Translations under genes and position numbers: made by a program
The notes under the pieces: model-generated
Databases searched by the model: none
Seen by the model: the letters and a program-made list of their open reading frames with translations, nothing else
What the model was told of the DNA's origin: nothing
Part shown: positions 3,894 to 19,988 of the stretch, in pieces
How positions within the stretch are numbered: the stretch's first letter is position 1
Layout: every line of letters starts with the position of its first letter
Assembly (NCBI GenBank): GCA_039621445.1
Contig: CP154954.1
Location: 13,617,670 to 13,637,669, forward strand
Source of the DNA: Euglena gracilis
Lineage: Eukaryota
Length of the DNA stretch: 20,000 nt
Reading direction: 5' to 3'

Positions 3894-4089
3894 CCTACGC
3901 ACAAGAGAAGGACGTGCGTGTGCTCCGCCACCACCACAATCCCCACACCCGCCGTCCCCTCGCCTCCACCTCCTACCCCCCACCCTTATTGACCCCGTCC
4001 CCGCCCCCCCCCTCTTCCCGGGGCGGAGAAGTCCCACCACCTCCAACGGAATCCCCTTGGCCGCACAATAATCCACCACATCCTCGTTG

Positions 4090-4222
4090 TAGGGGGGGAA
4101 GAAATCCGACCATGGCAGCCATTGGAGATCCGTCGGATCCCAATTTTTCCACCTCACCTGAAATTCCGGGACCCCCGTTTCCGGGTGGTTCCGGCTGCCC
4201 CTCTAACACCCACTCATCCCGT
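4090..4222 (-). pseudogene. Chromodomain at the integrase C-terminus (frameshifted)
   Basis: DEWVLEG / RNHPETGVPEFQVRWKNWDPTDLQWLPWSDF fits the EyeVE.I...eflVkWkg.....tWep pattern. Confidence 0.8.
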
Positions 4223-4259
4223 CCCACCTCCAGGGGGGCCGCCTTGTCGTTGAAATAGA

Positions 4260-5330
4260 ACAGTGGGAGGGGTCGGTGGAGAACTCGTCCTCCGCGTGAA
4301 TCTTGAGTTGGCTCCGGTGTGTGTCTTGGCGGGCCCCCGGGGCCAGCTCCACCACATATGAGTGGCGACCCCGGCGGGCCACCACAGACCCCCTTTTCCA
4401 CTTGGTGGCCAACTTGTCTGTGCCCGGCTGTGTCTCGGGACGGTACCACACCTTGGCACCGACCTCCAGGGGAGGTGGGTCCCTTCTCTTGGCGTTGATG
4501 GAAGCGCACCGTTTGGCGTGCAAGTCATTCAAGGTTGAGGCCACCTTTTCGTCCATAGCCCGCATCCGTGCCATGAAGTCGGCTGCCCCCTCGGCCTCTC
4601 GTGGGGGCTGGTGGGGCAGGCCTTGGAGTGGCCGGTGCCGCCCGAAGACCACCTCGTAGGGCGACAAGCCGGACTACCCAGGCACATCGTGAAGGTGCCG
4701 GAGAGCCTTGGGTAACAGCACCACCCATGAGGCCTCCTTTTCCGACAAGTCGGCGATGATCTTGGACAGGGTGTTCATCACCCGTTGGCCTGCCACCTCT
4801 GCCCGACCGTTGGCCTGGTGGTGGTAGGCCTGCACGTAGGCACGCTTCACCCCCATGGCGGCGCACATTGTTTGCCACCAAGCCGAAGCAAAGTGGGGGC
4901 CACGGTCCGAGGTCACCACAGAGGGCACCCCGAACATGTCCCAGTGGCGGAACATGGCCTTGGCCACCACCTCAGATGTCAGGCCCTTGTACTTGTGGGG
5001 GGTGGCCACTGTCCACCCACTCTCACGGTCCACGCACAGGGCCAGATAATCATACACCTGGCCCTCGTGGGTCACCTCAGGCATGGCGAACAGGTCCACT
5101 GCCACACTGTCCATGAGGAACGGTGGCACAGGGGTGGCTTCGAGAGCACACTTGAAAGGTGCTCGAGAGGGGTCACAGGCTTGGCAGATTTCAGATTGCC
5201 GCTGGATGCCTTGGGTTATTTTCTCAGCCCCCCTTGGATCCGCGAACCTGTACCACCGCCCCATCTGGTGCCAGAGCCTGGAGGCTCATGGGTGGCCCGC
5301 GTCCCCGTGGTGGGCCCGGACCACGAGCCC
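4260..5330 (-). pseudogene. Retroviral-type integrase (HHCC finger, DDE core, GPY/F-like region)
   Basis: AHHGDAGHP*..CQAC; VAVDLF, VTSDRGPHF, HHQANGRAE; SPYEVVFGR; KLATKW..SYVVEL..HRSQLK. In-frame stops at 5286-5288 and 4674-4676. Confidence 0.93.
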
Positions 5331-6094
5331 CATCAGGCTGTTGGGCACACAGAGGAGCCCGTCCGTGTACATTTTGTCCTCGTACAGACGGACTCCCTCA
5401 GGCCACTCCCCGACAGGGGCCTACACACTTGCATAAACAGGCCCCACACAGGGCAATTGTCATATGCCCGTGACCAATCCCTGTCCATCACTGGGATGGA
5501 GGGATCCTCCTCCACCTCCTCCTGGGTGTGCACCCCCGTGTCTGGAGAAAGTGAAATTGGTTCCCCCACAGGTTCCCTGAGATCCCCCCGGTGGGGATTA
5601 TCGATGGGAGGGTTTGGCTGCAGGTCCTCACTCAGAACTCTTCGCCCTGGTTGGTGTTCCTCATGTCCCCCCCTTCTTGCCGGCTGTTCATTCCCGAATT
5701 CATCCACGAAAAGATGGGCACGTGGGGAACCTCGTGTCTCCCGCGTGTCCAACCCAGGTCCCCCAGGTCCCTCCCCTCCCATGAGGATGGGACCCGAATC
5801 TCCCGAGGGGGCGTCCACAGGCCCCTCCCCCCCTGTGGGGTCAGGGCCAGGGCCCCCTGGCACTGAATCCTCAGCCCCCTCCCCCTCTGTGGGGCTGGGG
5901 CCAGGTCTGTGCTGTGCTGCTGTTTCTCTCCCACTGCGTGTTGTTACCGCCACGTGGAGTTCCGCCCCCCCGTGCGGTGTCCCGCATTCTCGCTCTTCCC
6001 TCCGTTCTTCCTCGATCATGGCCCTCATTGCCTCATCATCCTCCTCGCTCCCGTGGAGGCTGATGTCGGCAAAAGCCTTGGAGGCAGGATATGC

Positions 6095-6520
6095 CCATCT
6101 GCTGAGGGCATCCGCCACCACATTTTCCTTTCCCGGGATGTAGACCACGTGAAGGTCAAACCGGGAGAACATTTCATGCCAGCGTCCCCGCCTCCCGGCA
6201 GGTCCGCTGGGCGTGTTCAGGGTTTCCTTGGCCCAGGCCTCCACGGACTTGTGGTCCGTGAGGACCAACACCGGCTGCAGGTTGTTGTAGGAGGCCCATT
6301 TTTGGAGGGCCAGGATGATGGCGTAGGTCTCCTTCTCCCGCGGAGACCAGCTTTTCACCTGCCCAACTGTGAGTTTTCGGGAGCAGAAAGCCACAGGCAC
6401 GGTTTTCCGTGTTGTGGCCTCCACAGCGGTGGGCATCCCCTCTGTTGGCTCCAAAAACTGTTCAAGGGCTGCCCCCACCGCCTTGTCACTCGCATCAACC
6501 CGGAGAATGAATGGCTGGTC
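6095..6520 (-). pseudogene. RNase H domain of Gypsy pol
   Basis: FILRVDASDKAVGAALEQ, PVAFCSRKL, EKETYAII, VLTDHKS, YIPGKENVVADALSR in ORF 5333..6955. Confidence 0.95.
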
Positions 6521-6559
6521 CGGGTTGATGGTGTGGAGCTCCAATCCCCGGAGGAACTC

Positions 6560-7443
6560 CTGTTTCAGGGCGGTGAAGGCCTCCCGTTCCACTTGGCCGA
6601 ATTTCACAGGTTTTTTACTCCCCTTTTTACCCTCCACTCGTCCCACCTTGAGGATTTCCATCAGGGGGGCTGCATACCGGGCATACTCTTTCACGTAGCT
6701 GGAGTAGTAGTTGGTGACGCCCAGAAAGCCCCTGAGGGCTGTGATCGTGCGGGGCTCCTCCCACTTCTCCAGCGCCATGAGTTTGCCCGGTGCTGGCCTC
6801 CGTTTTCCTCCCCCCAGGATGTGGCCACAGAACTCCACTTCTCTTACGAAGAAGCGGCATTTGTTTTTACCAGGCGGTGCTCCCGCAGTGCCCGCAACAC
6901 TCGCCTTATGTCCTGGTCGTGTGCCTCCAGGGTAGCTTCCTCCGTGCCACACCACTCCGTCCCCACAATGATGTCGTCAACGTATGGGTTGGCGACATCA
7001 GCCACATCCCTCAGCGAGTAGTTGATCACCCGCTGAAAAATGGCCACTCCATTTTTCAGGCCCATCACGACCACACACCACCGCTTGGACCCCCGGGGGG
7101 TGCTGCAGCAGGTGTATGGGCGTGAGTCTTCGTGTAGGGGCACCTGATGGAAGGCATCCTTGAGATCAAGGACGGAGAACAGGTACCTCCGTCCCTGGTT
7201 CACCATGATGTCCTCGATCCTGGCGAGGGGGTATGCGTCCGTCACTGTGGCCTCGTTTAATGCCCGGAAATCCACAACCCCACGCCACTTCCCCTGTTTC
7301 TTGGCCACCACGAACGTAGGGCTGCTCCACGCACTCGGCACCCCCTCCTCCACCTTCTTGTCCCGAACCCACTCGTCCACCAGGTCGCACAGTGCCCTGT
7401 GTCTCTCCCCCGTCAGGTGGATGGGCCTCTGTTTTTTCGCCAC
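6560..7443 (-). pseudogene. Reverse transcriptase of Gypsy pol (frameshift near 6870)
   Basis: WSSPTFVVAKK, WRGVVDFRALN, DAYPL, LDLKDAFHQV, MGLKNG, YVDD (6973-6984), KCRFFVREVEFCGH, LRGFLGVTNYY. Confidence 0.96.
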
Positions 7444-7879
7444 AGATCCGGTTTAAATTCGATTTTCCCTTCTCCCAGGGGCCCTCGAACGATTCTTTCC
7501 CCCCAAATCCTGTCTCGGAGAACCTCTCCCTCGAAGTCCATCCGGAGGGCTGCCCGGAGCTCCTCAGCCCGCTGGCTGGTCACCTGTTCCGCTTGGTGAA
7601 CAAGGATGACCCCTTGGGCGGCCCGTGCCTCGAACTCCCGGGCTGCCCGCAAGAGTTCCTTGGCTACTGTCTCCTGGGTCGCCTCATCCTCGTGCAGGGT
7701 TTTTTCCTCCCACTCAGGCTCCTCGGTGTCCTCCCCCAGGGCTGCCTCTGGCAAAGCAAGCCGCAGTGCTCTGACTTTTTCCACCGTTTTCAGGTATCTC
7801 GCTCACTTTTGTGCCTTTTTATGGGCTGCTGGCTGAACTTGCTCACCCTCCGCATCATTTCCCCGAAGGAGGACCACCT

Positions 7880-9625
7880 GCTCCCCCCTCAATGCCAAGG
7901 CCCGGAGGTGTGGGAACACCCCGAGCTGGTTTTCCTCCAGCCACGGGAAGCCGATGATGGCCTCCACGTGGATGTCGGCCTCATAGAAGGAGGCTGGGGC
8001 AGTCCACAGGGCCCCCTCCCCCTGACCCAGGCCCCCTTCCCGCCGGAGGACCAGGTCCAGGATTGCCTCCCGTTCCCCCCCTTCCATCTTGGCTCCACTT
8101 GCTGTCACCAGGGACAGGGGCTTGGGGGCAGGCAGGAGGTACAGGCCCGGGCGCAAACCGCAAGTACATTAAATACGTCAGGAATTAAACCGCAAGGAAT
8201 TTAATCCGGTGGGGCCCCGCCAGTCGGGGAATTAAATCCGGTCGCCCTTTTTTCCGCCGATTTTTTTTCTCTTCGGCGTCAGGGTTACGTCCCTCGCATT
8301 GTGTAAGAGATTTTTTTTGTGTCGGTTCGCAAACACCAGCAGAAATAAACCATTTTTCAGACGAATTTTCAACTCCGCATTTTTGTGTAAAGGGGGCCTT
8401 CAAACTGAAAAAATGTTCCATTGCTGGACCCTTTTTCCGGGGCGTTGACTGGCGTGGACCCCCACTCTCCCCCCCGTGGGTCCACGACTAAAAAAAACCC
8501 CTGCCCCCAAACTGGCCACTGGTGGAAAATAAGTTGAGTGGAAAATTGGCAACCACATCCACATCACCAGATCAATTTCCCAGTCAAAAAAACAGTTTGT
8601 TGCAAAATGGTGTCATGCTGGCCCAGGGCCTTTTCAGGCCACTGGTGTCAAAATGGTGTCAGTGGGGGGGGGGGGGGCTTTGCAGGCACTGAAAATGAAA
8701 ATTGAACTTTTCAGATAGTTCCACACGGGAAAGGAAACACATTTGTAAATCACAACAATGCAGCAGAAAAAAAAGGATGCACTATGTTACAAAAAAATAC
8801 AATGCAGCAGTTACAAAACATCTTCTTCTCCGGTTTCTCTGTTCTTCAGTTTCTCTCAATTCACCTGATGAAAAATACATGCATCCAAACACAACGGATG
8901 ATGCCACAGAAAATACCCACAGAAAGAGGCATTGCATTAAAAAGCCATTTGATGCCGCAGATGCATGCCACAGACATTTGATGCTACAGCCACAAACTTT
9001 TCATCAAAATTCATTTTCCCAGGCTACAGTGGAAAAGATCAACACAGACTTTCAGTGGAAATGAGCATTTCAGCAGAACAAGGGACAGGGGTCACACCTT
9101 CAACTGTGAAATTGTTTACCTTTAAATTTGCCCATTGCTGCATCTTCTGCCTGCACTCTTGGGAGTCCTGGGGTGTAGAGAAAAAATCGTTTGATTGGAA
9201 AGGGACATAAACCTATCTGTTGAACTTCTCAGCAGCTTAAACCAACTCTTGTACCGCTTGAGGATTCGCCTTTTTATCATTGGGTTCCAAAAACTTCTTC
9301 ATTGGTTTCTGACCAGGTGTGTAACTGTGGTGGTAGCTGAAAGAACGCGTATACATTCGCTAATCGTTCGCTAATTCGGGTAAATAATACTCGGGGGAAT
9401 TAATTCCGTGGACCACCCGAAAGTCGAGGAATTTAACCGGATTTAATTCCCCCGAGGTTTTTTGTCCAACCGAATTAAATGCCCACGAGATTTAGGCCCG
9501 GGCCTGTATGTGTCGGGAAGCATGCCTCTTCGGACCAGGTTCACCTCTGCCCCTGTGTCAATGAGGGCATTGATGAAGTGGGACTGTCCGTCTGGCCCCC
9601 TGGCCTGCACTCGCATCAGCAGCTG
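7880..9625 (-). pseudogene. Aspartic protease split by a TIR element (coding parts ~9507-9625 and ~7880-8141)
   Basis: INALIDTGAEVNLV (DTG 9551-9559)...LPDTY|LLPAPKPLSLVTASG...EAIIGFPWLEE. Removing the insert and one TA joins the halves in frame. Confidence 0.9.
8142..9506. mobile_element. Non-autonomous DNA transposon with TA TSD and 11-bp TIR (Tc1/mariner-like target signature)
   Basis: TA|CAGGCCCGGGC ... GCCCGGGCCTG|TA, subterminal GGAATT(A/T)AA motifs at both ends, AT-rich interior, no transposase ORF. Confidence 0.88.
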
Positions 9626-9749
9626 CCGTTCCCCGGCACCCTGCCCCACCTCACGGAGCAAGACAGAGGGCACCACTCGCTCTGTCTGGGGGTCCCGCTC
9701 TGGCTCCGGAGACTCTGCAGCGTGGGCCTCCGGTGCTGGTGCTGTGGCA

Positions 9750-10350
9750 AGGTCACGGATGAGCGCCTCTGGGATCCGATATTTTAGGTGCCTGGGCAGG
9801 TTTTGGTGTTTGCTTCTGAGCCGGATTTTGTTCCGTCCCTTCTGTCCCCCTTCAGGTACCGGGCTTTCCAGGTTGGAGCAGGTCCGGCCGTCACACACCC
9901 GTGGCCTGAGACCCAAGACATGGGGGCTGCCCCATATCCTGGTGGGCTTCTGGTAGCCCCAGTCTGCATACTGGCAGTAATCCACGTCCACGTGTGGGAT
10001 CCCTGCCATGTACCTGCGGGTCCGCAGGTACCCGTACCGGGGGTTTTCCAGCCACCACCGCTGTGGGCGGAGGTACTGGATGATGGCCAGGGCCGCTGCA
10101 CCAGCCGATCAGCCAATTTAAAATCTCGTTCCCTGGTGGTCAGGGCCAGGCTGAACTCGGTGCAGGGGACCCCGCACACCACCACCTCAAAATCCCCAGG
10201 CTGGAACTGTTTTTTAAAATTCCATTTTAGCACGTCTACACAGATGTCTGGCCGCCACCTGGGGTCCACGTCCACCGACGTAACCTGGAAACCCAGGCTG
10301 CGGTAGACGTCCCCCACTGAACCTGTCCCGCAGAACAGGTCCAGCATCCG
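9750..10350 (-). pseudogene. C5-cytosine DNA methyltransferase domain (one frameshift near 10092)
   Basis: Motif I MLDLFCGTGS (FCGTG 10321-10335), SVDVD, motif IV CGVPCTEFS (PC 10162-10167), motif VI WWLENP (10040-10048), VDYCQY..QKPTRIW, C-terminal KYRIPEALI. The C-terminal half is in frame with the protease. Confidence 0.92.
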
Positions 10351-10504
10351 TCTCGGCTGGTCCGCTCTCCCCACCTGCCCCAGGTGTGCCGGCTTGACCT
10401 GCACTGTGGCCCCCCCAGTCCCAGGGGGTGGCCCTGAAAAATGTGTCCCAAACCTGGTTTTTTTCTCCCTCCCCTTTCGTGTCACCTCCTCCCGCGTGCA
10501 TCAG

Positions 10505-10930
10505 TCTGGGTGCCCGCACAGCAAAAACGCTGTGATGGGCCACTTTGTCCCCCGGCACAACTCCTCCCCTCTGCCGAAAAATCGTGTTCCCTGAGGGAAC
10601 GTGACTTGGCGCACTGCCAAGCCACTGGCCTCCCTATACCAACGCCGCCCCAGCCACCTGGGGGTCACCAGGATGGCATGGGCCTGATCCCTCCTGGTTT
10701 TTTCGAGAACCTCCTGTATTTTTTTATAAGGTGGGTTGATCCACAAAAACCTCCCTGCCCCAGTCCTGTTTGAAGGCATCTTCCCCTTCCCCACTCCTCG
10801 GCCCCCACCAGCGGACAAACCTGCGGTTTTCTTTGGCAGAAAAGGCGTCGACCTCCGGCTGGACCCCCAGGCGGCGGGTACGTCCCTGACGTACTCCTCC
10901 CGGACGTGGTAGTCCTGGGAGATCCACCGG
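10505..10930 (-). pseudogene. Dam-like (phage/DIRS-type) amino-methyltransferase domain, probably N6-adenine (two frameshifts)
   Basis: Joined from ORFs 10724..11020 and 10501..11025: QDYHV..PEVDAFSAKENRRFVRWW..EDAFKQDW..LWINPPY (10726-10737) KKIQEVLEK..AILVTPRW..RRWY. Confidence 0.85.
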
Positions 10931-11650
10931 CAGGGCGACCTCCCAAACCCTGAGGAACGGGCTGGGAGTGGTGCTGGGGGTGGTGTGGGGGTTGAGGTGG
11001 AAGGTGCGGTCCTGACGCACCTCACCTGGCGAATCGAAAAACCTGAATCCCTTTCCGTGCTGGGGGCGGTTTCATCCGTGCCCTTGATGGTTTGGGGAAC
11101 GTTGATGACCTCCCTCGCTGCCTCCCTGATTGATGCCTGTGAGAGCGTTTTGTCTTTTCTTTTTTCTTTTTTTGTTTTGCGTTTTCCCCCTCCCTTCCTG
11201 GTGTTGTGATCTGCGGTAGACTGGGTGTGCTGGAACCCGAAGACCCCTGGGCGGCCTGCTGCGGAGGGCCAGCCGCCTTGTATCCCTTCTCCCTTGTTCC
11301 CGAACCTGAACTCTGACCTGAGCCCCCCCCTGGACTGCCCTCGCTGGGGAAAAGCGCAGCCCAGGGGTTGGCAGAGTCGAATGGGAGGGCCTGCTGGCCC
11401 CCCCAGCCCCTTTTCGTGTCCCAGTCAGGGGGGGCTGGGGGGACCGTGCAGGCCCAGGTCCGGGTCTGCCGTTGGACCTTCCCTTGACCAAAACCCAACC
11501 CTCTCCGTGAACCCTTTCCTCACCCCCCTTCCGAGGGCCGTGCTGGGGGCACCCTGGGCCCCCGTCCCCTCCCTTCTGGCCCCCGCATTTTCAGGCACTC
11601 CCCCGCCGTGGTGGCGTGGAAGTCCCCTTCCCCTTTCCCCTTCTCCACCA

Positions 11651-11746
11651 GCACTGTCGTGCCAGATGTCCCGTTTTCCCGCACTCATAACACTTCTTTC
11701 CTGGGCATTCCCGAGACCGGTAATCTGTGGCCCCGCACTGGCTGTA
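11651..11746 (-). pseudogene. Gag nucleocapsid: two CCHC zinc knuckles, the first degenerate
   Basis: YSQCGATDYRSREC and CYECGKTGHLARQC in ORF 11591..11800. Confidence 0.88.
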
Positions 11747-11799
11747 GGGCTGGTCCACCGAGGGGCCACTCCGGGGGCTCCTCGGGGGGGTTTGTTCCA

Positions 11800-12660
11800 T
11801 GTTGGTGGCTGGGTGGGGGGTTGGGGACCTGGCTGGGCGAAAATCTGGCCGCCCCTGCCAGCTCCCTTGCCGAACCCCTTCCCCTTTTGCCCCGGACTGG
11901 GTGACCTGCGTCCCTCCCGTCCCTTTCCAGGTGACCCGCCTCGGTGCCGTGATTGCCTGTCCTGTGGCCCCTCGGGGCCTTTGGGGGGTCCTGCTTTTGC
12001 TCCCCCCTCAGCTGGCTGTGAAACGGTTTTCTGGGGCTGGGCTGGCCTGGCCTCCTGGGATTTAACTTCAGAGACTGAAAAAATGTCGAGGCCCCCGGCC
12101 CAGTGGTCCTCCTGGTGGCCTGGGACCCCCCGTCCGCCCCAAGAACGGCCATAGCTGTCAGACCGTTCCTGGCACCGCAGCTCGTTTTCAGCGTGTCGAA
12201 AAACCTCTTCCAATCCCAGCTTTGTTTCGTGGGGGGTGATTTTCACTGTATTGCCCCCCTGTAGCATGGCCCCGTTCCTCATCATCAGCCTCTCCAGCGC
12301 CCGTCGGCTGTAGAGCTTGATGAGGAAGGAGTCCCGGTGTGCCCTGACTGTCACCGGCTCCCCCTCACCCACAGCCTCCTGGGCGAGTTGTGCTGCCTTC
12401 TCCACTGTCAACCCTGGGATGTGCCACAGCCGCACTGTGGGCGCATCCTGATTTTTCCGTGTCTGTTCCCTGATTTTGGCCCTTCGCATGGAATCTGGGA
12501 GCAGCTGTAAAACCAGGGCCTGTGCTTCCTCCTCCGAGGGGTTTTCCATCCGGCAGAAAATTAATTTAAACTGGCTTTCATATTCACGCCACGCTGGGAG
12601 GGTTAACTTACCCGTGTTGACTGGTCTGAGGGCCCTGAGCTGCTCATGCAGCGAGGCATG
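11800..12660 (-). pseudogene. Gag, C-terminal part, including an RRM-like segment at ~12235-12441
   Basis: HASLHEQLRALRPVNTGKLTLPAWREYESQFKLIFCRMENPSEEEAQALVLQLLP... continues ORF 14075..15358 in frame once the insertion is removed, and leads toward the zinc knuckles. Confidence 0.75.
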
Positions 12661-14330
12661 GGAGACAAGGCACAGGGGGGGGAGGGGGGGGTCCGAGGGG
12701 GGTGGTTGGAAGCTGTACAGGGGGGGGGGAGGGGGGGGGTCCCCAGAAAATCACAACTGTACTGCCCACCCCCGAGACATTTGCGACATTTTTCGTCCAA
12801 TTGAGGTTGGCAATGATGGATTTTGCGAAATTCAGATGCATTTTGCAAAATATTTGTGTCTTGTAAAAAGAATGGTAGCCAGAGTTTTCACTTTAAACAC
12901 TTAGCAGAAAGGCAGGAAGCAGCTTCAATCACTCCCCCTTGGCACACCATGCGGAATTGAGCCAGGGTTGACGTTTTTTTTTGTTTTTCAACAAAGAACA
13001 AAATATGTTTTTTTTCCAAAAAAGAACACAAAAAAAAAACATGTTTTCTTTTTTAAAAAAGCAAAAATTGACCTTCTTCCTTGCGAAATGGCCATTTTTT
13101 GAGGAAAAAGTTTTAAGGTCATTTTTTTGGTCATCAAAAGTGACGTTTTTTTAGTTTTTCCGGACACTTCATCCAGCACCCTTCACGGACTACGAAGCTG
13201 CAGAGATGAAAAAAGACCTTTTTTCTAAAAAAAAAGTTTCAAAAAAATTCCCCCAAACCCGCCATGAGGTTTTTTTTTTTTTTTTAAAAATTTTTTTTTC
13301 TTAGGGGGTGCCCCCCCCGTGACCCCCCCCCCCCCGTTACATCCCCGTGACCCCCCCGTGACCCGAGAATCGATCCTCCGCCATTCTTTTTTTCAAAAGC
13401 ATTTTTTAAAAAACAATGAACTTTCATGTATCCTTGTCTGCCCAATGCACCTTCATACCAGAGCTGGCGTTTTTTTTGTTTTTTTAAAAAAAAACAAAAA
13501 ACGTGTTTTTTTTGAAAAAAAAACGGCAAAAAAACCGGTTTTTTTAAAAAAACCGGCCGAATCAAGCGCCAAGTCGCCGGCAACGGAAAAACTCAAAAAA
13601 AAACACCACACACATGCAACCCCCCCTTTCCTCGGTTTTGTATTGACCTTTGAAGCATGGGCAAAAGAGGTTGGTTGAGAAAATAGCTATAAAAGTGACA
13701 GAAAAAAATGCAACAATTCCAAGATCATGTTGGGAACTGCCCAAAAAAAATGAAAAAATTTTTTTTCCACCATACCCCCGCTGGCGTTTTTTTTGTTTTT
13801 TTAAAAAAAACACAAAAAAAACAAAAAAAACCGTTTTTTGTTTTTTTGTTTTTTTTTGACTGCCGGCTTTGCTTCATACCCAAAAATGGCCAGAAATCTT
13901 TTCCCCTGAAAGAAGTGCCAAAAACTGGTGCATTTCCCCACCCAAAACGGAATTTTGTCAAAAATGGCCCAAACTTCATCCCAAAAACGTGTTGGTCAAG
14001 AAAATCCTAACAAAATTCCCTTTCAAAAATGACCAATTTTATCACGATGCAACGTCATGAATGTTGCCTCCCGGCTACCTGCAAAGTGGCATACTTCCCC
14101 CGTGACCCCCCCCCCCCCCCCCCCCTGACCCCCCCATGACCCCCCCAACCCGCACGTTTTTTTGTTTCAAAAAAAAACAAGCCGTTTTTTTAAATTTTTT
14201 TTTCATCTGTCTCGGGGGGGGTTGGAAGTGGGGGGGGAGGGGGGGGGGTCCCGGGAGGGGGGGGTTGGAACTGTACAGGGGGGGAGGGGGGGGGGTCCCA
14301 AGGTTTGACCAACTGTACTGCCTTGTCCCC
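12661..14330. mobile_element. Non-coding insertion with 20-bp TSD and 12-bp imperfect TIR; probably composite
   Basis: TGCTCATGCAGCGAGGCATG at 12641-12660 and 14331-14350. Ends read GGAGACAAGGCA and, on the other strand, GGGGACAAGGCA. The interior is made of A/T tracts and poly-G/C. Confidence 0.88.
13890..14040. repeat. Dispersed repeat, homologous to ~19405-19550 plus ~19820-19880
   Basis: Shared AAATCTT.TCCCCT.AA..AGTGCCAAAAA.TGGTGCATTTC...CAAAAATGGCCCAAA...CATCCCAAAAA...GGTCAAGAAAATCCTA...TGACCAATTTT. Confidence 0.8.
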
Positions 14331-16493: not shown

Positions 16494-16954
16494 GAGGCTA
16501 GGCACAACGGGGGGGGGGGGGGGCGGGGGGGGGGGGGGGAGGGGCGCGCCGGGGGGCCGGGGGGGGGGGGGGGGGGGGGGAGGGGGGTCCGAGGGCGGCC
16601 GCGCGGGCGGAACGCATCCTAAAATCGGTGATTTTCGGATCCAAAAAGTGGTCATTTTTTGCCATTTTTGGGCCATTTTTGACCAAAAAAGTGCTTTTTT
16701 GGCCGCGCGCAGAGCGCGCGGCCCCAAATTTGCCATTTTTTGTCCGAAAATGGTCATTTTTGGTCATTTTTGGGCCTCAAAAAATCGCGATTTTTTCTCC
16801 AAAAAATTTTTTTCTTGGCTATGCTAGGCACAGTGGGGGGAGGGGGGGGTCCAGGGGGGGGCGAGCGGCCGCGCAGGCGGCCGCGCAGGGGCCGCGCGGG
16901 GGGGGGGGGGGGGGGGGGGGGGCCCGGACCCCCCCGAGCGGTGCGCCTAGCCTC
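16494..16954. mobile_element. MITE-like element with GAGGCTAGGC(A/G)CA TIR and 5-bp TSD CACCG
   Basis: CACCG|GAGGCTAGGCACA ... TGCGCCTAGCCTC|CACCG; poly-G and GCGGCCGCGC motifs near the ends, AT-rich core. Confidence 0.8.
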
Positions 16955-17054: not shown

Positions 17055-17750
17055 CAAAATTTTAAGTCTCACATGGTGGGGGCTGAAAATTAAAATTTAA
17101 GACTCACGAGGGGGGGGGGCTGAAAATTTAAATTTTCAGTCTCACGGCAGGGGGGGGAAATTGATATCCGCAATTTTTCCGCAATTTCCGCAATTTTCCG
17201 CAATTTCTGCAATTTTCCGCATTTTTTCCGCAATTTCCGCAGTTTTTCCGCAATTTTCCACCATTTTTTTTGAAGAATTTTTTCCCCACCACCGAAGATG
17301 GAAGATGCAATGAGTTCAAGCCATTCTTCAAATGGATCAACAGGTGTGCTATTGTGTTTTGTTGTCCCCCCCCAGTTTACCAATTTTTCTCACAGGTGCA
17401 CCACTGGTCACAGGATTGGGTGCGTCCCACCTGTGCAAAGAACATCAAGCGTGTTGATTTGTGCTCGCCTGCATCGACGTGGGTGTTGCGGTGTTCTGAA
17501 CCTCACAATTGAAAATTTTCTCAGTCCCCCCAAGCAGAAATGTGTATACCCGATATCAATTTTTCCGCAATTTTTCCGCAATTTTCGCATTTTTTCTGCA
17601 ATTTTTCCGAAGGCCTCCGATATCAATTCCCCCCCCCCTGCTCACATGAGTGAAAATTAAAAGGCTGAAAATTAAAATTTCAGTCTCATTGGGGGGGGGG
17701 CTGAAAATTGAAAATTTAAGTCTCACATGGGGGGGGGGGGCTGAAAATTC
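17055..17750. repeat. Degenerate tandem array (G-run-CTGAAAATT.AAATTT.AGTCTCAC), interrupted at 17148-17640
   Basis: About three ~37-40 bp units on each side of the inserted element. Confidence 0.75.
17148..17640. mobile_element. MITE-like element with CAG...CTG ends and ~20-bp TIR
   Basis: CAGGGGGGGGAAATTGATATC ... GATATCAATTCCCCCCCCCCTG, with subterminal CCGCAATTTT tandem repeats at both ends. TSD is unclear (CTCACGG vs CTCACAT). Confidence 0.78.
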
Positions 17751-18830: not shown

Positions 18831-18909
18831 AAAAAATGGGGGGGAATAGGTGGAAAATTATCTGTCGTGGTTCTTATTTCGTTCAGCGATCCACAAACCC
18901 CCCCCGTTA

Positions 18910-18966
18910 GGCTAGGCGCAGTGGGGGGGGGGTGAGGGGGGGGGCGAGCGGCTGCCGGCGGCCGCG

Positions 18967-19001
<35 letters not shown>

Positions 19002-19155
19002 CCGAGGGCGGCCGCGCAGGCGGTGCGGGGCCATTTTCGGGTCAAAAAAGTGGTCATTTTTGGCCATTTTTGGGCCATTTGGGCTCAAAAAAATGTCTTT
19101 TTCTTGGCTATACTTGGCACAGTGCGGGGGGGGGGGGGTCGAGGGGGGGGGGCAA
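18910..19155. mobile_element. Partial relative of the 16494-16954 element
   Basis: GGCTAGGCGCA start, TCCGAGGGCGGCCGCGC, AAAAAGTGGTCATTTTT.GCCATTTTTGGGCCATTT, TTCTTGGCTAT.CT.GGCACAGTG; right TIR missing. Confidence 0.75.
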
Positions 19156-19817: not shown

Positions 19818-19988
19818 TAACGGTCAAGAAAATCCTACAAACTTCCTTTTCCAAAAAATGAAAAAAATGACCAATTTTGGACATAAAAATCACCCAAAAA
19901 TGACCACTTTCAAACCAAAAGGCATTTTTTTGTTCAAAAATGGCCCAAAAATGGCCAAAAATGATTACGTTTTTGGACCCAAAAATCA

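Follow-up and report, generated by a model that had tools for sequence, protein, structure and literature searches.

We analysed a 20,000-nucleotide (nt) stretch of Euglena gracilis contig CP154954.1, which we call the window. Its main feature is a degraded retrotransposon whose coding region includes two methyltransferase (MTase) domains, one Dam-like and one of the cytosine C5 type (C5-MTase), between Gag and the protease. A three-frame reading places the element on the minus strand, together with all of the motifs that an earlier note on this DNA had quoted. In the plus-strand translation of 8400-13200, none of these motifs is present. The orientation had not been stated in that note.

Frame reading, tblastn with intact relatives and Pfam give the following minus-strand order: Gag with a CCHC motif, Dam-like domain, C5-MTase, aspartic protease (PR), reverse transcriptase (RT), RNase H (RNH), integrase (INT) and the remnant of a chromodomain. 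All features of the element given below are on this strand. The Gag-like open frame at 11425-12750 extends for 441 amino acids (aa) from stop to stop and matches no Pfam family. A single canonical CX2CX4HX4C knuckle, whose motif starts at 11692, lies in the frame 11591-12007 and scores 25.5 bits against Pfam zf-CCHC (cut-off 20.8). This frame differs from that of the Gag open reading frame (ORF), and Gag is therefore frame-broken.

The Dam-like MTase domain (10504-10947) is of the DIRS type and resembles PF05869. It has the motifs VDAF (10852), DAF..W, WINPPY (10743) and ILVTPRW (with ILVTP at 10674). The C5-MTase domain that follows (9749-10360) is compact, at ~205 aa, and has motif I DLFCGTG (10341), the motif IV PC, ENP (10048), KPTRIW (9949) and YRIP (9781). 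An open frame of 221 aa (10108-9443) holds ENP, KPTRIW and YRIP as well as the DTG of the protease (9559), which means that the C5-MTase reads in frame into PR. The first part of PR (9506-9640) thus continues the frame of the C5-MTase's second half. PR is then split by a secondary insertion of 1367 nt (8139-9505), and its second part (7803-8138) was located by tblastn with the relatives P0003 and P0020.

With the intact relative P0003 as a tblastn query, the window aligns at 10947-10093 with 48% identity and at 10075-9506 with 57% identity (joint E 1e-129). Without composition adjustment, the same two stretches align at 47% and 58% identity (E 2e-142). Judged by these alignments, the similarity of the window's MTase region to P0003 is far above chance.

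The remaining regions have the properties of a Ty3/gypsy element. RT (6844-7452, YVDD at 6984) scores 87.3 bits against RVT_1. RNase H (5921-6865) is in a further frame, and the ORF at 5333-6976 scores 68.7 bits against RT_RNaseH. The integrase (4206-5411) is of the DDE type and scores 38.2 bits against rve on 4674-5285. All three scores are above the Pfam cut-offs. Finally, the C-terminal half of the chromodomain remnant (4020-4202) aligns with the end of the P0019 chromodomain (33% identity over 52 aa, E 3e-07), while the N-terminal half is cut by a stop at 4205-4203; Pfam Chromo has no match on the window pieces at E ≤ 0.01. The RVT_1, RT_RNaseH and rve matches and the chromodomain remnant support the assignment to the Ty3/gypsy type.

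The earlier note had proposed a Gypsy element with a Dam-like domain and a C5-MTase between Gag and protease, and with the C-terminal half of the C5-MTase in frame with a DTG protease. Each of these points is borne out by the Pfam matches, the motifs and the open frame just described. That note had also reported CCHC "knuckles"; there is a knuckle, but only one and not several.

The copy in the window is dead, a property that, like its frame breaks, the earlier note did not contain. The N-terminal part of the Dam-like domain, at 10879-10739, is shifted in frame (it corresponds to P0003 residues 290-333, with 50% identity and E 2e-13). A TGA stop at 10503-10501 separates the Dam-like domain from the C5-MTase, whose own frame is broken near 10092 according to tblastn. 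The tblastn alignments also reveal a frame change on either side of RT, towards PR and towards RNase H (the latter near 6865), and the integrase contains four in-frame stops. In a DNA sequencing run of the host (X1), sister contigs have one-base length differences at 10877, 10745 and 10092, which are the frame breaks of this copy.

A pair of long terminal repeats (LTRs) was not found in the 20-kb window by a repeat search and a sensitive self-blastn, which returned nothing beyond low-complexity repeats rich in G or T and the inverted termini of the secondary insertion. The missing LTRs concern this degraded copy, not the family. No second copy of the element was found in the two flanks, which were searched with the Gag region (tblastx) and with the proteins of the relatives (tblastn). 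Large ORFs outside of the element have no Pfam match.

The secondary insertion at 8139-9505 is a non-autonomous transposon-like insertion. Its GC content of 0.45 is lower than that of its surroundings, it interrupts the protease at 9505/8138, and it has terminal inverted repeats of ~70 nt that begin with CAGGCCCGGGC, together with a duplication of 2-3 nt (TA or a 3-nt duplication). Six X1 contigs run from 8138 straight to 9506, without the insertion, which indicates that it arrived later than the element. It is also repeated in the host, at about one tenth of the retroelement's summed depth. Some contigs in RNA-labelled runs cover parts of this insertion.

Both MTases are integral to the family. 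The repeat search and the self-blastn of the window found no direct or inverted repeats flanking either MTase, in agreement with the earlier observation that no target-site duplication or terminal inverted repeat surrounds them. The conclusion drawn from that observation, that the MTases belong to the element, also stands, because both domains occur within single ORFs of intact relatives and because the depth of host DNA over the MTases is level with that over the rest of the element.

Relatives are abundant. The C5-MTase/PR piece has 65 matches at E ≤ 0.001 among longer proteins. An exhaustive search of representative sequences, in which the query was the window frame running from the last part of the Dam-like domain into the first part of the C5-MTase, found 1768 proteins at E ≤ 0.001, including 454 at E ≤ 1e-10. 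Five long polyproteins (P0019, P0020, P0013, P0026 and P0049), each a single ORF, have Pfam matches to Dam, DNA_methylase, RVT_1, RNase H, rve and Chromo, and Integrase_H2C2 is also among their matches. DNA_methylase exceeds its cut-off of 22 bits in all five (24.4-28.2 bits). Dam exceeds its cut-off of 28.1 bits in four of them, with 27.0 bits in P0049 (the range in relatives is 27-45 bits), and Chromo exceeds its cut-off of 25.1 bits in four, with 24.5 bits in P0026.

Both MTase domains occur in 53 of 214 relatives examined. Among the 30 relatives that reach RT, 17 have both domains, 12 have only the C5 domain and one has neither. Where RT and INT are both reached, 7/10 relatives have the two MTases and are near-complete polyproteins. 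These counts are biased, since the MTases were the queries and many ORFs are cut by the ends of contigs.

The host DNA gives a similar picture. In run X1, 17,317 contigs match positions 4000-13000 at 90% identity or more. The summed depth is 212,000-298,000 in bins over the MTases, compared to 216,000-412,000 over RT and INT, and 21,000-84,000 in bins at 8214-9417, inside the secondary insertion. Summed contig depth does not equal copy number, but a module that is present in one or a few copies would give a deep trough, and none was seen. We also observed contigs over the MTase region in the RNA-labelled runs X15, X16 and X19. For two of these runs the RNA label is itself a guess, and DNA carry-over is possible, so that we draw no conclusion about expression from them. 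Run X19 is labelled as leaf litter on a 0.10 share of words, which we do not use as evidence of habitat.

Some relatives have a different set of modules. The long gypsy polyproteins P0053, P0059, P0037 and P0039, which belong to the same C5 clades, have a DNMT and no Dam-like domain; P0059 represents a cluster of 158 member sequences. There may thus be lineages with only a DNMT beside the dual ones. Another captured module occurs in P0049, whose residues 553-623 match Pfam SLBP_RNA_bind, the RNA-binding domain of the histone-mRNA stem-loop binding protein, with 81 bits.

The order of the domains also varies among relatives. In addition to the window's type (DAM-C5-PR), we found PR-DAM-C5-RT, C5-DAM-PR-RT, DAM-PR-C5-RT, C5-PR-DAM-RT and PR-C5-RT-DAM. 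The full order in P0049 is C5-PR-DAM-RT-INT-chromo. We compared these orders with a tree of 84 C5 domains and four stand-alone outgroup genes, which was made by a quick search with SH-aLRT support only. Domain orders cluster by clade of the C5 tree, with 36 label changes compared to a mean of 57.0 in shuffled labels, and none of 200 shuffles was as low; the labels are blurred by cut ORFs, and related rows share labels through descent. Since the orders cluster with the clades, the pattern appears to be heritable rather than the result of random chimerism, and it argues for inherited rearrangements over assembly chimeras.

Motifs expected of the two enzymes are conserved in 84 C5 segments and 46 Dam-like segments taken from relatives. 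In the C5 segments, PC is present in 82/84, EN[PV] in 75/84 and F.G.G in 65/84. In the Dam-like segments, NPP[WYF] is present in 45/46 and D.F[AS] in 44/46. PHROGs families annotated as "DNA methyltransferase" match both domains.

Structure predictions point in the same direction. An AlphaFold model of the relative P0009 contains two confident domains, with a predicted local distance difference test (pLDDT) score above 90 over residues ~61-200 and 251-420, and its top Foldseek matches are DNMT3B, DNMT3A, DNMT1, MET1 and DIM2 (E ~3e-8, probability 1.00). A profile of both domains matched DNMT1 weakly (E ~1e-3). The C5 domain has the features of PF00145, with motif I, the Pro-Cys of motif IV and ENP in the sequence of the window and the DNMT fold in the model.

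The model of a relative with only the Dam-like domain has a pLDDT of 91.7 and a class I MTase fold. The (D/N)PP(Y/F/W) pocket that belongs to such enzymes is represented by WINPPY in the window. The top Foldseek match of the model is PCIF1, a cap-specific mRNA N6-adenosine MTase (E 4.5e-05). PCIF1 is also the top match in VIA (Z 10.9, root-mean-square deviation 3.0, 131 aligned residues), where the Dam enzymes of T4 (Z 8.3) and E. coli (Z 8.0) occur among many rRNA adenine MTases. Z scores near 8 are common for this fold, so that the model makes the Dam-like domain secure as to class, not as to substrate. A sequence profile of the Dam-like alignment matched no solved structure for this domain. 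Matches in the ESM Atlas have low scores (0.81-0.82), are to small phage-type methylases and serve as a lead only. Overall, the modelled folds and the conserved motifs fit active-type methyltransferases.

Relatives of the C5 domain also occur outside of retroelements. We scanned metagenome contigs for a pattern that rested on a single conserved peptide. Of the 36 loci found, only one (L001) is a retroelement. The other 35 are stand-alone C5-MTase genes, and their products are ~214 aa long where the ORF is listed (L017, L019 and L032). Their identity to the element's C5 domain is 30-41%; L017, L019, L032 and others align with the full length of that domain, at 31-39%. They match phrog_757, a PHROGs family that they have in common with this domain. 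They thus resemble the element's domain in their compact size and in their PHROGs family, and differ from it in that they are single genes, on low-GC contigs that lack RT, PR and a Dam-like domain.

Three of these contigs (L017, L019 and L032) encode a D5-like primase-helicase (DUF5906 and VapE-like matches, above cut-off) and have a sub-threshold match to the capsid N-terminus of large DNA viruses, a weak double-jelly-roll capsid match. In their sequences, the three contigs resemble polinton-like viruses. We observed that L017, L019, L020, L030 and L032 are marine or freshwater contigs of 13-25 kb with low GC in which the C5-MTase adjoins the primase-helicase and the weak capsid match, and that L032 has two copies of the MTase. 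The stand-alone genes nearest to the DNMT thus appear to be viral, which we take as a lead on the module's origin and not as a result.

The earlier note had regarded the architecture as undescribed, and this claim does not hold. A preprint of 22 May 2026 (Fernandez-Moreno et al., bioRxiv 10.64898/2026.05.21.726589) describes "EpiLTRs", which combine DAM, DNMT and chromodomain, in Euglena gracilis and Cymbomonas tetramitiformis. The following statements about it refer to those parts of its text that were available. The preprint reports Dam-like domains in several gypsy lineages, places the EpiLTR DNMT as sister to DNMT4, and groups the Cymbomonas DNMT with that of Euglena. A full-text literature search found no further paper on the architecture of DAM, DNMT and chromodomain. 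The dual-MTase gypsy architecture is thus real and already described, and the window does not contain a new kind of element.

The window has several of the features of EpiLTRs, as judged by Pfam and tblastn. Ty3/gypsy RT, RNase H and DDE integrase are present in the order PR-RT-RNH-INT, and identity to P0003 is 47-50% in the Dam-like domain and 57-58% in the DNMT. The Euglena EpiLTRs resemble the window element in their abundance in the host and in the function proposed for them. The available text gives no domain order to compare with the window's Gag-DAM-DNMT-PR-RT-RNH-INT-chromo, and no LTR was found in the window copy. The Cymbomonas EpiLTRs are similarly chromovirus-like, with DAM, DNMT and chromodomain, but their DNMT comes after pol, at its 3′ end, whereas both MTases lie between Gag and protease in the window. 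Neither the difference in domain order between clades nor the virus-like stand-alone DNMT relatives appears in the preprint text that was available.

Other retroelements share one of the two domains. DIRS elements (Goodwin and Poulter, cited in PMC5890265 and in the preprint) have the same short Dam-like domain, with D.FA, NPP[YW] and P.W. However, DIRS elements use a tyrosine recombinase, while the window element has a DDE integrase (rve), gypsy order and a chromodomain. We considered membership in DIRS and rejected it on account of the integrase. De Mendoza et al. (2018, PMC5890265) describe DNMTs in LINE and DIRS elements of Symbiodinium and in a gypsy element of Klebsormidium, and report that retrotransposon DNMTs methylate CG de novo. 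Like the window element, these elements (KnitGypsy-Dnmt3, SymbioDIRS-Dnmt3 and SymbioLINE-Dnmt) have a C5-MTase in a retrotransposon coding region. The enzyme is of the DNMT3 type or a Symbiodinium-specific DNMT, unlike the EpiLTR DNMT that the preprint puts next to DNMT4, and is without a Dam-like domain, and the portions of that paper available to us mention Dam-like domains in DIRS elements only.

We now note properties of the window that lie outside of the element's coding region. A G-rich direct repeat of 95 nt (81% identity) occurs just upstream of Gag, at 12675-12766, and 1.5 kb further upstream, at 14232-14322. The repeat brackets an AT-rich low-complexity stretch (13000-14000, GC 0.37), and could represent what is left of the element's 5′ region, with DNA that arrived later separating the two parts. 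A ~350-nt unit recurs 2.4 kb apart, at 16495-16861 and 18909-19150, with 76-78% identity, and a 68-nt piece of it is inverted at 19917-19984. It consists of very long G runs mixed with T-rich stretches similar to GGTCATTTTTGGCCATTTTTGGGCC. Short arrays of an imperfect unit of 9-11 nt, similar to TTTTCCGCAAT, occur at 17164-17277 and 17541-17616. Neither the Rfam scan nor the tRNA scan of the window gave a match.

An open stretch on the minus strand at 1713-2330 has a Cys/His-rich motif (C..C ... GDHEICC ... RHN) and no Pfam match. A motif of this kind occurs towards the C-terminus of some ORFs of non-LTR retrotransposons.

The best explanation of these results, to which we assign a probability of roughly 0.8, is that the window contains the Gag-Pol part of a dead copy from a very high-copy family of chromovirus-like Ty3/gypsy elements of the EpiLTR kind, in which both MTases are built in and would most likely mark the element's own nucleic acid. 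In intact relatives, the MTases are translated with Gag-Pol and should therefore be in the particle, which is the site of reverse transcription. Our results show that the domains are present, what folds they have, that their catalytic motifs are conserved, that the family retains them and how abundant the copies are, while the activity of the MTases, their substrate, the timing of methylation and its benefit to the element are what we infer from here on. Both enzymes would be made within Gag-Pol and packaged, and their most likely job would be to mark the nucleic acid of the element. The DNMT could put 5-methylcytosine (5mC) at CG on new cDNA or on a fresh insertion, which would then resemble the default-methylated DNA of the host. 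The Dam-like domain might N6-methylate adenine, be it in DNA, in RNA or in a hybrid of the two, and the chromodomain would steer integration. The idea that N6-methyladenine (6mA) and 5mC are placed on the element's own cDNA or insertion site had been put forward in the earlier note, and the preprint discusses the same self-marking hypothesis.

Several results weigh against this explanation. No LTR was found in the window, and the "LTR" part of the EpiLTR name is thus unverified for this copy. The earlier note had suggested a Pfam search with PF05869 and PF00145; the relatives match both families, but DNA_methylase reaches only 13.1 bits on the window pieces (cut-off 22), and Dam has no match on the window's own MTase pieces. 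The frame breaks are the reason for these low scores. The Dam-like domain is missing in the 12 RT-bearing relatives that have only the C5 domain, which may mean that some lineages lack it or that the ORFs are cut. The top structural match of the Dam-like domain is an RNA enzyme and not a DNA enzyme. According to the preprint, this domain is without the CD-1 (the first catalytic half) and TR-1 of bacterial Dam, and DAM domains of transposable elements did not raise 6mA in Dam-deficient E. coli. Finally, the element has a CpG observed/expected ratio of 0.54, compared to 0.64-0.67 for its flanks, a mild and unspecific depletion. These two values are too alike to argue for or against self-methylation.

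A broader reading is possible, although we regard it as doubtful when taken as a whole. Under this reading, dual-MTase gypsy elements are a large group that is old and widespread in the environment, and their MTases and protease were reshuffled several times (at least five orders, each confined to a clade). Their compact DNMT would be shared with, or drawn from, small double-stranded DNA viruses of protists (polinton-like), and not from a host DNMT.

The marks might also reflect a truce between host and element instead of evasion. In this scenario, CG self-methylation and targeting by the chromodomain silence or park new copies, so that the host is harmed less and a very high copy number becomes tolerable. 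The extreme abundance of the family (the 17,317 matching contigs in one DNA run) fits this scenario, as do the CpG observed/expected value of the element and the preprint's findings that LTR expression in E. gracilis is low or undetectable and that 5mC is near-default at CG. However, silencing and mimicry both predict methylated copies, and our data do not separate them. Moreover, the preprint ties the DAM domain to 6mA and permissive chromatin in other hosts. We consider a truce rather unlikely.

It is unlikely, in our view, that the Dam-like domain is not a writer of 6mA in DNA. It would then methylate RNA (the genomic RNA, the cap-adjacent adenosine or the RNA strand of a hybrid) or bind nucleic acid without catalysis, and the DNMT alone would act on DNA. 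This possibility is suggested by PCIF1, the top structural match of both aligners with a Z of 10.9 compared to 8.3 and 8.0 for the Dam enzymes, and by the small size of the domain, at just ~135 aa. The lack of CD-1 and TR-1 and the negative E. coli result also favor it, and the preprint proposes a hybrid substrate. On the other hand, Z gaps of 2-3 among Rossmann-fold MTases tell little about substrate, and profiles place the domain in Pfam Dam (in relatives) and in a PHROGs DNA methyltransferase family. The near-universal conservation of NPP[WYF] probably implies catalysis of some kind. The preprint also reports that DAM-LTR insertions have more 6mA than other LTR elements.

It is very improbable that the MTases are a one-off in a single copy, through nested insertion, chimeric rearrangement or an assembly artefact, even though the preprint cautions that chimeric transposable elements may arise in E. 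gracilis from nested insertions and assembly artefacts, and this copy does have one real nested insertion, in its protease. The reasons are that intact relatives have both domains with PR, RT and INT in one ORF, that X1 depth is equal over the MTases and over RT and INT, that the MTases have no flanking repeats and that the domain order tracks the C5 tree.

Relative to the preprint, our analysis adds an independent confirmation that both domains are present family-wide, with their catalytic motifs kept and with predicted methyltransferase folds. It also adds the rearrangement of domain order between clades and, as a lead, virus-like contigs as the seat of the nearest stand-alone DNMT relatives. 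The similarity of the modelled Dam-like fold to an RNA N6-adenosine enzyme bears on the negative DNA assays in the preprint; in view of both, the substrate may be RNA or a hybrid. A mobile element that has putative writers for two DNA marks as well as a chromatin reader would be a striking example of a parasite that engages with the epigenome of its host.

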